A stretch of DNA of 64,000 nt from Podarcis gaigeae (Eukaryota): the NCBI GenBank assembly GCA_964106915.2, contig OZ066914.1. The stretch is one strand, 5' to 3'. This document shows positions 6,532-42,119 of the stretch, one piece after another. The position numbers and the translations under genes were made by a program. How positions within the stretch are numbered: position 1 is the first letter of the stretch; each line of letters begins with the position of its first letter. The notes beneath the pieces are model-generated. The model saw only the letters and a program-made list of their open reading frames with translations. It ran no database searches and was not told the origin of the DNA.

Positions 6532-36273
<29,742 letters not shown>

Positions 36274-36968
36274 GTTCGCTGCCCTCCGAGGCGCCGCGGG
36301 AGAAGGCTCGGCCCCCCCGGGGGGAAGCGTAAATGGGGCTGGAGGGGGGTGGGCCCAAAAGGGGGTGGGGAGGGGAGGGCTCCAGGGGTGCATGCCGGGA
36401 AGCGGGGCCGGGCTCGAGCCAGGTTTGGCGGGCGGGCGCGCCTCCCGCGGAGGAAGGGCCGGTCCTGCAAGCGCCCGGCAAGGGGGGCGGGAGGCGCGCG
36501 GGGCCTGAGCTGCTTCTCGGCGGGGTGCATTGGGCGCAGGCTGCCCTGCTGCTGCTCCCTCTCTCTAGAAGTGAAGCGCGTGGCCAAACTTAAAAGGGCG
36601 GGCAAGAAGCAGGCAACACCCACCCCCGCGTTCAAAACCGCGGCTCAGGCGGCCCCCCCGAAATGCATGCCCTGTTGCGGGGGGGGGGGGCACAGGGCGC
36701 CAGGCGCACTGCCGCGGGCGGCTTCCTTTTCCTCCTGGGGAGCTGCCCTAGGAACGTAGAATTAAAGGCAAGGTTCAAGAATGGGGCGGGGCTGGAGCCC
36801 CCCCCCCCCGGATGCCAGAGGCGCCCTGAGCTGGCAGCGGAGCGGGGCCAAAACCAGCGGGGCTCTGGGGGAGGGAGCTCTGGAATTGGTGTGTCGCCTG
36901 AAGGGGGAGGTTTTTTAAAAATCTGCCCTAAATCTTCCAACATTACTTTGCTAACCCTAATTAAAGAA

Positions 36969-37209
36969 AAAACAAAAAAAATTCCTTCCAGTAGCACCTT
37001 AAAGACCAACTAAGTTAGTTCTTGGTATGAGCACCTTAAAGACCAACTAAGTTAGTTCTTGGTATGAGCTTTCGTGTGCATGCACACTTCTTCAGATACA
37101 AGAAAGCTCATACCAAGAACTGACTTAGTTGGTCTTTGAGGTGCTACTGGAAGGAATTTGTTTTGTTTTGACTATGGCAGACCAACACGGCTACCTATCT
37201 GTAACTGGA
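36969..37209. mobile_element. Penelope-like element remnant (inverted terminal segments)
   Basis: 13-bp TSD CCTAATTAAAGAA (36956-68, 37210-22). PLE-type end TTAGTTGGTCTTTGAGGTGCTACTGG...CAGACCAACACGGCTACC. The left part is an inverted copy of the right, and there is a 37-bp tandem duplication (36994-37030 / 37031-37067). Confidence 0.85.
37062..37099 (-). ncRNA. Minimal type I hammerhead ribozyme motif (Penelope-associated)
   Basis: The - strand reads GUAU-CUGAAGA-A-GUGUGC-AU-GCACAC-GAAA-GC-UC-AUAC: stem I GUAU/AUAC, CUGANGA box, 6-bp stem II, GAAA box, palindromic AGCU mini stem III and a UC cleavage site. Confidence 0.8.
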
Positions 37210-38026
37210 CCTAATTAAAGAAGGTGCAGTTATAGGGGCTGCATCTAAATTTCTGTCAACTGCCTCATTTGGCTTCAGCTCACCCATAATAATCCTCTCT
37301 TCACCTAAGAGAATATTGACTGAATGCTACCTCAGGATGCCATTTAAAAAACCGTAAGAGTCCAGTTAATATAATAATATATTTACACTGCACCTTTTCC
37401 CCTGACAGAGACTGAAGGTGGCTTACAGGTAAAATAAGCAGTCAGATCCCAAAATACTGTTCCAAGGAAGTCCTCACCTGCTGGCGGAAGGCCAGTCTGG
37501 CTTCTCCAAGAAGGGAGCAGCCACCAAGAAGGCCCCGTTCTTGTTGCTGCAGAACCAATCACAGTTTGATGATCAGGTCGTGGTTCTTCTGGTCCTGGAA
37601 AGAGGAATGACTCTGGCCACAGGTCTGTGGGACACCTGTGGGGCCCTCCAGATATTCGTGGACTCCCGACGTACACCAGCCCCAGCCAGCAGGACTGGTG
37701 CTCAGGGATGTTGGAGTTGTATGTCATCTTGAGCTCCATGGAAGAAAAGTGGATAGAAGTGTAGTGTGATATAATCTGGAGCATTGAATGTTTCCCTGCG
37801 TCAAGGCACCGAAAGCCACTAAGCAGCTTACATTTGCAGTTGCAGTGGCACTGCTCTGTCACTTTATATTACTATGACTAAACCACATTAGAAATTTAAG
37901 TGGAAAACTAATCCATCCTCAGCAAGGAAGTGGAGTTGCTTTTAGACTGAGATTTAAACTGAGCTGCCCAAGTTACTGACACTGGAGCAAGATACAGGAT
38001 GTGCAGCTGAGTAACTATTCTGGTGG

Positions 38027-39493: not shown

Positions 39494-42119
39494 CATAGGC
39501 GCCGACTCCATGGGGCCTGAGGGGGCCCGAGCCCCCTCAAAAATTCGTTTAAGAAAATTATTACCGTAAATTTCGCTCTATAACACACAGATTTTTTCTC
39601 CTAAAAAGTAAGGGGAAATGTCTGTGTGTGTTATTGAGCGAATGTGTGGTCCCTGGAGCTGACTCGCCGGAGCGCAGGGGCAAAAATAGGCAAAAATCAG
39701 GCAAAAATAAGATCGGGCGGAGGGAAGGCGGAAGCTGCTGCTTTCCTGCATTCTGCCTCAGGGTCTTACTGCCCACCTGCTTCTGTTGCTGCGTTTGCTC
39801 AAACTCAACAAAGAGCAGGGAATCCTCTGCCCTCCTGGCAAGCAGAGGGTTAAGGAAAGGATCGAGTCCTTCCTTCTAATTCTTTCCTAGTCACACTGCG
39901 TGCAGGCTCCAGCCCACCACCTCCTCCTCTCCGTGCTCTAGGGACTCGCAGGTGGGGGAGAGAGAGAGAGGGCTGGCTTGGGGGGGGGGGACTTTTGCCT
40001 TCCTTTCCTCCCCCCCACCCCGTTAAACTCCTCCCCTGCATTCTTAGCCAGCTGCTTCTCGGCACATCCCTCTTGTGCTTCTTGTCCCTTCTGTGTTTTT
40101 CCTTCCCTCCCCATTTAAAACGTGGTGACAAAGCACGGATCCACATGGATCCTCAGGATTTTTGCATTGGGTCACCCCAAATTCACCATCAGATCACATT
40201 ACATGTCCATGGCTACAGTCTGTACCAAAAAAATCACGCACCCACTGTTGCCTGGGGCTGCAATGGTGCAAAAACGTGGTTACAAAGCATGGATCCACAG
40301 GATCTTTGCACTGGGTCACCCCAAATTCACCATCAGATAACATAGCATGTCCATGGCTACAGCCTGCACCAAAAAAATCACGCACCCACTGTGGCCTGGG
40401 GCCACAATGGTGCAAAAACGTGGTTACAAAGCACGGATCCACATGGATCCTCAGGATTTTTGCATTGGGTCACCCCAAATTCACCATCAGATCACATAGC
40501 ATGTTCATGGCTACATCTTGCACCAAAAAAATCACGCACCCACTGTTGCCTAGGGTCACAGTGGTGCAAAAACGTGGTTACAAAGCACGGATCCACATGG
40601 ATCCTCCGGATCTTTGCATTGGGTCACCCCAAATTCACCATCAGATCACATAGCATGTCCATGGCTACATCTTGCACCAAAAAAATCACGCACCCACTGT
40701 TGCCTAGGGTCACAGTGGTGCAAAAACGTGGTTACAAAGCACGGATCCACATGGATCCTCAGGATCTTTGCATTGGGTCACCCCAAATTCACCATCAGAT
40801 CACATAGCATGTCCATGGCTAAATCTTGCACCAAAAAAATCACGCACCCACTGTTGCCTAGGGTCACAGTGGTGCAAAAACGTGGTTACAAAGCACGGAT
40901 CCACATGGATCCTCAGGATCTTTGCATTGGGTCACCCCAAATTCACCATCAGATCACATAGCATGTCCATGGCTACATCTAGCACCAAAAAAATCACGCA
41001 CCCACTGTTGCCTGGGGTCACAGTGGTGCAAAAACGTGGTTACAAAGCACGGATCCACATGGATCCTCAGGATTTTTGCATTGGGTCACCCCAAATTCAC
41101 CATCAGATCACATAGCATGTCCATGGCTACATCTTGCACCAAAAAAATCACGCACCCACTGTTGCCTAGGGTCACAGTGGTGCAAAAATGTGGTTACAAA
41201 GCACGGATCCACATGGATCCTCAGGATCTTTGCATTGGGTCACCCCAAATTCACCATCAGATCACATAGCATGTCCATGGCTACATCTTGCACCAAAAAA
41301 ATCACGCACCCACTGTTGCCTAGGGTCACAGTGGTGCAAAAACGTGGTTACAAAGCATGGATCCACATGGATCCTCAGGATTTTTGTATTGGGCTACTCC
41401 AAACTCACTGTCAGATATTAAAAATCTTTATAAAATAGAGAATTAAATACATACAGAATGTTAATTTTTCAGTTTTGAAATATTAGTACTAGTTTAGTAC
41501 TGTATTTCTATATTACTATAGTACTGTATTAGTTATTTTCAAATACTTAAATATTTTTAGGGTGTAAGACCCAATTAAAGCCCGTTATTTACATACAGTA
41601 TTACAGTATTTACATACAGTATTAGGCATACTGTATTAACTTTATTAACTGTATTAAAGCATTAACTTTGAGATATTATTTTTATTTAATGAACCCTCAG
41701 CCTTATTCAAAGTAAGCTTAAATTAGCTATTTCACTTATTAATCAAATGCTATTACTGTGCGACAGCAATATTTTATGTTTTATTCTTTTAATGATAGTT
41801 TAGGATTTATTTAAATATCATTTCAGTCTTTTCAGAGCTATATATTCACTGCTCTGTAATAGTCTATAAGCATAATTGTTAGTGTAAATTAAATTAGCTT
41901 TTTACGAAAATACCGTGCGTGTTTATGTTTTGTTTCTTTTTTCAAAGCCAAAAAGTGTTTCAAGCTTGTCGAGTTTCCCGGAGTGTGGAGTTATAGAGTT
42001 TTCGGGGTTCTAATGTTGATCATATGACTCTAAAATACTTTTTAAAAACTTTAAAACTCACTAATTTTCATCTAAAATTTAGAAAACTTCCCAATATTTT
42101 TTATAAGTCGGCGCCCCTG
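39494..42119. mobile_element. Non-autonomous hAT DNA transposon (2.6 kb) carrying a tandem array
   Basis: Perfect 8-bp TSD ATTAGATA (39486-93, 42120-27). TIRs CATAGGCGCCGACT / AGTCGGCGCCCCTG (12/14). No transposase ORF. Confidence 0.92.
40117..41415. repeat. 154-bp tandem repeat, about 8.5 copies
   Basis: Unit AAAACGTGGTTACAAAGCACGGATCCACATGGATCCTCAGGAT...CACAGTGGTGC; ORF starts recur every 154 nt (40614, 40768, 40922, 41076). Confidence 0.97.

Follow-up and report, generated by a model that had tools for sequence, protein, structure and literature searches.

Insertions of Penelope-like elements that carry an endonuclease (EN+ PLEs) have been described as 5′-truncated, with an inverted copy lying at the 5′ end and a tail of 30–40 bp at one end (PMC8557442; PMC3846280, on Pen2a of Adineta). 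For PAc, a Poseidon element of the lizard Anolis carolinensis, both DNA strands were found to be cut and extended in vitro at AT-rich sites, and two reverse-transcription starts define the tail (Frangieh et al. 2024, PMC11167929); the inverted junctions have alternatively been modelled as self-priming on an antisense template (PMC3846280). A CX2-5CxxC motif between the reverse transcriptase (RT) and the endonuclease marks the Neptune/Nematis elements and is absent in Penelope/Poseidon (PMC8557442). The minimal type I hammerheads of metazoan PLEs have a 4-bp helix I, a long helix II, and no stem III, and single genomes hold solo copies of them in the thousands (Cervera and de la Pena 2014, PMC4209133). 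As monomers they were reported to have no activity and as dimers low activity (PMC4209133, PMC6765202); the Anolis PLE hammerhead needed the protein of the element for cleavage, and its cut site showed no ends in RNA-seq (PMC11167929). Non-LTR retrozymes (bioRxiv 10.64898/2026.07.22.740005) are short, non-coding, PLE-derived sequences with a type I hammerhead, arranged as tandem arrays in which the hammerhead is complete in at least two consecutive units.

Here, we describe a 241-bp insert upstream of ATIC in a 64,000-nucleotide stretch of DNA from Podarcis gaigeae (the window). With a probability of about 0.9, we read it as a young, doubly 5′-truncated, head-to-head PLE insertion whose hammerhead is likely an inactive passenger without a role in ATIC expression. 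It has in common with the inverted-pLTR EN+ insertions the 5′ truncation, the inverted copy, the target-site duplication (TSD), the microhomology junction, and a tail of 30–40 bp confined to one end; it differs from them in its length of 241 bp, its lack of coding sequence, its one complete hammerhead core, its 37-bp duplication, and a TSD of 13 bp against the 8–10 bp of the rotifer examples (PMC8557442, PMC3846280). Like PAc, it carries a hammerhead in its pLTR, and it appears to share the two RT starts that define the tail and the cutting and extension of both strands at AT-rich sites; the present family, however, encodes a CX4CX2C motif of the kind absent in Penelope/Poseidon. The general traits of the retrozymes (short, non-coding, PLE-derived, type I hammerhead) are likewise shared, but the insert holds a single core, the only one in the window, where retrozymes have tandem units with at least two complete hammerheads. 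Moreover, unlike a retrozyme, this type of insert would be made anew at each insertion, with junctions that vary.

Among the papers listed for exaptation and for template switching or conversion, none dealt with the present case. As it stands, the locus is one among thousands of stubs of a known type and matters little. If its core were cut in vivo at this place, a transposon ribozyme would, as has rarely been seen, be coupled to a housekeeping gene of purine synthesis, and minimal PLE hammerheads would be shown to work beyond the element that bears them. Of more use is a by-product, the family itself, with thousands of young, near-identical insertions whose arms can be scored.

Layout of the insert and its parent family

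The features of the locus, in window coordinates, are the following.

About 35923–36828, no strand: CpG island with the ATIC promoter and exon 1 (ATG at 36273 on the − strand).
36956–36968, no strand: ATIC-side copy of the TSD (13 bp, AT-rich), from the repeat search; a single copy stands at the empty site of organism C.
36969–37099, − strand: sense arm, the 3′ end of a PLE pLTR, its 5′ truncation falling on the hammerhead's first base, tail-less, with the 37-bp duplication.
36993–37069, no strand: perfect 37-bp tandem duplication with 3-nt microhomology at its bounds; the junction occurs at two genomic places.
37062–37099, − strand: minimal type I hammerhead core, by direct reading; 9,021 exact genomic copies.
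37098–37105, no strand: junction of the head-to-head inversion, with short microhomology; one base is substituted compared with siblings.
37098–37169, + strand: second, inverted pLTR end (the antisense arm on the hammerhead strand), with the 3′ half of the hammerhead only.
37170–37209, + strand: 40-nt PLE tail, confined to the inverted arm, from genome comparison and published tails (PMC8557442, PMC11167929).
37210–37222, no strand: distal copy of the TSD, from the repeat search.

The repeat search agreed with the first-pass annotation, made from the letters of the window, on a 241-bp insert (36969–37209) bracketed by a perfect 13-nt direct repeat (36956–36968 and 37210–37222). That annotation had also read the insert as inverted PLE terminal sequence, and the arms indeed proved to be copies of the element's 3′ end: the outer pair (36969–37032 and 37106–37169) spans 64 nt at 95% complementarity, and the inner pair (37030–37077 and 37098–37145) spans 48 nt at 94%. 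The fold z-score is −13.3. Two features had been absent from the earlier description, namely the 37-bp duplication at 36993–37069 and the 40-nt PLE tail at 37170–37209. An ATTAAA hexamer (+ strand, the direction of divergent promoter transcripts) lies in the TSD and was doubled by the insertion (36960 and 37214).

The complete minimal hammerhead core that had been claimed on the ATIC-sense strand, running from 37099 to 37062, was borne out base by base. On the − strand, stem I (4 bp) pairs 37099–37096 with 37065–37062, and between its strands follow CUGAAGA (37095–37089), an extra A (37088), stem II (37087–37074), GAAA (37073–37070), a palindromic AGCU, and C17 at 37066, which places the predicted cut between 37066 and 37065, where the annotation had put it. 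The conserved bases C3, U4, G5, A6, N7, G8, and A9, then G12, A13, A14, and A15.1, and finally U16.1 and H17 are all present, as are helices I and II, the additional nucleotide that separates positions 9 and 10.1, the G10.1–C11.1 pair, and the palindromic 15.2/16.2 positions. These traits, together with the 4-bp helix I, the long helix II, the missing stem III, and the thousands of solo copies, are those of the metazoan PLE hammerheads (PMC4209133). Helix II has 6 bp with a 2-nt loop here, compared with 7–8 bp in Schistosoma, and unlike the hammerheads of that study the core is flanked by its own antisense arm and has no tandem partner. The core matched the window once, with 0 matches expected from 100 shuffles; the insert's + strand holds no CUGANGA..GAAA pattern, which is confined to the − strand. 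A search with hammerhead models, as proposed in the first-pass annotation, drew no such family: the Rfam scan gave nine matches at E ≤ 10, comprising sub-threshold hairpins of miRNA models and one snoRNA. Silence of the hammerhead models is what one would expect of a motif that lacks helix III. The miRNA scores lie below threshold and reflect the hairpin.

Across the 1.51-Gb genome, exact copies of the 38-nt core number 9,021, or one per 168 kb, and those of its reversed control 0. In the first 30 of these copies the same 3′ sequence continues from the core, and many of the 30 are preceded by the element's native sequence, in which a TATA-like motif lies about 30 nt upstream of the core. The native upstream sequence of the element encodes a GIY-YIG domain (one of two frames tested). 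One long copy (L073) retains an uninterrupted 813-aa frame (L073:1282–3723, − strand) with matches to RVT_1 (4.8e-12) and GIY-YIG (2.4e-05), both over the cut-off, and this frame ends about 180 bp from an identical core. Its translation has a CX4CX2C motif between the RT and the endonuclease, which points to the Neptune/Nematis type. A first look yielded 5,429 candidate endonuclease ends, and the 150 that were scored are 97–100% identical; the family is therefore young. With thousands of near-identical endonuclease ends it appears to have been recently active, and its near-intact frames may supply a helper protein and partner RNAs in some cells. The insert itself has no coding part, and its link to the RT and GIY-YIG frame runs through L073. 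Given this link, the inverted pLTRs with 5′ truncation, the tail at one end, and the TSD with its empty site, the insert is, on sequence grounds, an insertion of an EN+ PLE.

The head-to-head layout recurs across the genome: at 449 places, 10 nt or less separate the end of an antisense arm from a core. Among the first 30 of the 449, all on contig C1, exactly one arm carries a tail in 25 and a direct repeat of 12–17 nt flanks the insertion in 23; one further repeat match is element sequence and was not counted. A retrozyme or MITE-like unit replicated whole was rejected, as the junctions differ from place to place. From the published PLE biochemistry we infer that the element's protein would have cut both strands at the AT-rich site, that reverse transcription would have been primed from the two known start points, and that both cDNAs probably ended after 110–130 nt and were then joined head to head via microhomology. 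Joining of two cDNAs and self-priming fit the present junction data alike, and we make no choice between them. In siblings L037, L048, L052, L060, L061, and L076, short repeated restarts (9–25 nt) lie at the inversion junction or close to it, which would fit repeated jumps between templates as the ends were joined.

Age of the insertion and its place at the ATIC promoter

The site is empty in the related organism C, where contig 25 of run X5 joins 36955 straight to 37210 with a single copy of the TSD; across about 1,870 bases of flank, this contig and the window differ at 45. Contigs from two studies of organism A (X1 and X3) reach into the insert from both flanks and break inside it. A contig of organism B (X4) runs from the right flank into the tail, and organism B probably carries the insert. 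Because the site is empty in organism C, the insertion is lineage-restricted, and an intact core in a lineage-restricted insertion can be explained without selection. Conservation at the orthologous site, by which an exapted ribozyme would be recognized, is thus contradicted by the empty site. The core would owe its integrity to the youth of the copy rather than to local selection, although the point that it is unmutated and lies on the ATIC strand counts against a mere passenger. The first-pass annotation had ranked the locus as the best RNA-level lead in the window. A special standing of this copy is not supported, given the 9,021 exact cores genome-wide, about 90–150 of which are expected by chance within 1 kb upstream of some gene, assuming 15–25 thousand genes.

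The neighbouring gene was identified as ATIC by profile matches to PF01808 on the − strand at 25866–26012 and 26079–26210. Its first exon reads MASRQQL before a GT donor, with the ATG at 36273 (−), and the insert lies upstream, its edge 696 bp and its predicted cut 792 bp from the ATG. GC boxes (36430–36784) and CCAAT boxes (36529 and 36885) lie in the island and, read along the ATIC strand, downstream of the insert. The insert had been placed directly beside the CpG island and about 0.8 kb upstream of the ATG; the distance holds for the cut site, and the TSD starts about 130 bp beyond the island's edge. In the left flank, the X1 and X3 contigs have about 31 gap positions relative to the window at 36502–36539 (in X1 at 36505–36539, inside the CpG island), and this gap in the ATIC promoter is either an indel polymorphism or an assembly difference.

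No TATA-like motif of the element was found in 36200–37700. Upstream, none of 90 frames of at least 70 aa matched Pfam, a search that exons shorter than 70 aa would escape; the frames numbered 98 in total, and the eight inside a tandem array were left out. This array, about 3 kb past the insert (40117–41416), consists of about 7–8 copies of a 154-bp unit with 94–96% matches. With the TATA-like motif missing, no coding gene detected upstream, and the site empty in organism C, the earlier proposal of a role at ATIC is not sustained. A far-upstream ATIC start or a non-coding read-through transcript that crosses the insert is possible.

If the insert acts on ATIC at all, it may do so as DNA or as a hairpin and not as a ribozyme: a young repeat could attract methylation, form a cruciform, or yield a long dsRNA hairpin from a divergent + transcript of the promoter that runs across it. 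Divergent transcription occurs at CpG-island promoters. The insert adjoins such an island (130 bp), its + strand folds into a hairpin of −124 kcal/mol that has no catalytic core, and the ATTAAA of the + strand was doubled with the TSD. We nevertheless give this reading little weight: the same hairpin is present in hundreds of siblings, and the CpG content of the adjacent island appears undepleted, with an observed-to-expected ratio of 0.55–0.83. A silent passenger remains the reading that we prefer.

The 37-bp duplication and a second locus with the same junction

The two units of the duplication are 100% identical. The second copy again contains the cleavage triplet and stem I's 3′ strand and is without CUGANGA and GAAA. 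Small internal duplications were found in 5 of 60 sibling arms, which makes them ordinary copying slips. The identical junction occurs at two places in the genome only, the window and a locus 586 kb away on the same contig (L032:1327–1622; C1, about 135.535 Mb); the probability of such closeness for a random pair is about 0.0008, a value computed after the fact. L032 is an independent insertion with unrelated flanks and its own 16-nt TSD, and its sense arm differs from that of the window at 2 of 130 bases. A segmental duplication that would contain both loci was rejected, as their flanks have in common just one other old repeat. An apparent third junction on C26 (L076) was rejected as a chance match of the element's end plus TSD.

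The two arms of the window's insert are discordant at a diagnostic dinucleotide, at which 24 of 25 comparable siblings are concordant. The discordance and the common junction would alike be accounted for by gene conversion or by a template that was shared or local, judging from the sequences of a single pair. We put forward tentatively that two RNA templates were used for the insertion, of which one was a stub nearby, or that such a stub converted it; this account is more doubtful than not. This rare 37-bp marker, common to two neighbours, could be used to test two templates per insertion against the copying of a nearby stub by the Penelope protein.

We also considered an assembly error as the source of the duplication, in which case the true locus would be an ordinary, locked inverted stub. 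As assembled, the units of the duplication are fully identical, and the X1 and X3 contigs break within the insert. The same junction stands, however, in the independent L032, for which a shared template or conversion is an easier explanation than two errors, and we regard an error as improbable. Were it true, the reading of the hammerhead as a silent passenger would be strengthened.

Predicted folding and cleavage

Every fold given here comes from nearest-neighbour predictions, which leave out Mg2+ and tertiary contacts. The isolated core is predicted to form stem II with a pairing probability of 0.98 and stem I with 0.64–0.73; the monomer has no helix III. In the growing − strand RNA the antisense arm emerges first and is predicted to cover GAAA and the cut site, and with 3′ ends from 37062 to 37000 the hammerhead fold costs 10.2–22.5 kcal/mol. 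The first-pass suggestion that the arms may sequester stem I was supported by prediction, in which the arms sequester the core. In the complete insert, the cost is 2.7 kcal/mol, with a stem I probability of about 0.1. Among 30 siblings, the 20 whose core is exact have costs of 21.6–40.2 kcal/mol (median, 27.6). As the value of the complete insert is far below theirs and near the copies in native context (median, 3.8 kcal/mol; n = 16, including the outlier L019 at 61.6, which has an inverted neighbour), the core would not be permanently locked.

This predicted release depends on the duplication. The antisense arm can pair in two near-equal registers (−123.1 and −123.7 kcal/mol), and about 73% of the ensemble has it paired with the duplicate; formation of the outer stem lowers the cost of the hammerhead from 22.5 to 2.7 kcal/mol, so that later branch migration onto the duplicate could free the core. 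The conformational switch raised in the first-pass annotation has thereby gained a computational basis, but one that works via the 37-bp duplication, and no trigger is evident. A core freed in this way would reach just the ordinary state of a lone copy, without stem III, in need of a partner and probably of the element's protein as well. The duplicate as an in-cis substrate strand (3-bp stem III) was rejected: in the full insert it lies 21.7 kcal/mol above the ensemble. Such a pseudo-dimer costs 11.4–17.0 kcal/mol in RNAs starting at 37105–37110, 51.4 in the nascent RNA, and 3.5–4.7 without the arm.

The active pairing of two cores is predicted at −11.1 kcal/mol, a lower stability than that of two monomers (−13.6) or of an inactive duplex through stem II (−30.6). 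The annotation had assumed that such hammerheads cleave efficiently as dimers, and here the papers differ from it, with cleavage that is either low in dimers (PMC4209133, PMC6765202) or dependent on protein (PMC11167929). Cleavage at the locus would have to combine − strand transcription, a free fold, and a partner.

A delayed two-register switch would bring these together: the core would be locked when transcribed, freed by branch migration 70–90 nt later, and cut with the help of PLE protein or of another PLE RNA as partner, so that rare ATIC transcripts started upstream would be trimmed. The two registers, the fall in cost, and the intact core on the ATIC strand speak for it; against it stand the monomer without stem III, whose in-cis substrate fold has a cost even without the arm, the inactive monomers and weak dimers in print (PMC4209133), the empty site in organism C, the ordinariness of such duplications, and L032, where the hammerhead fold costs 35.8 kcal/mol and the duplication leaves the core locked. 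We thus consider it very improbable that the 37-bp duplication, derived from or common to the tiny PLE copy 586 kb off, made a timed RNA switch by which PLE activity would, in this lineage, trim ATIC transcripts that begin upstream, and we retain the inactive passenger as our reading.

Stem II (37074–37087) is a perfect 14-nt palindrome, and it is there, not via the short stem III palindrome, that two cores are predicted to pair. Such duplexing may help explain the weak activity of dimers.
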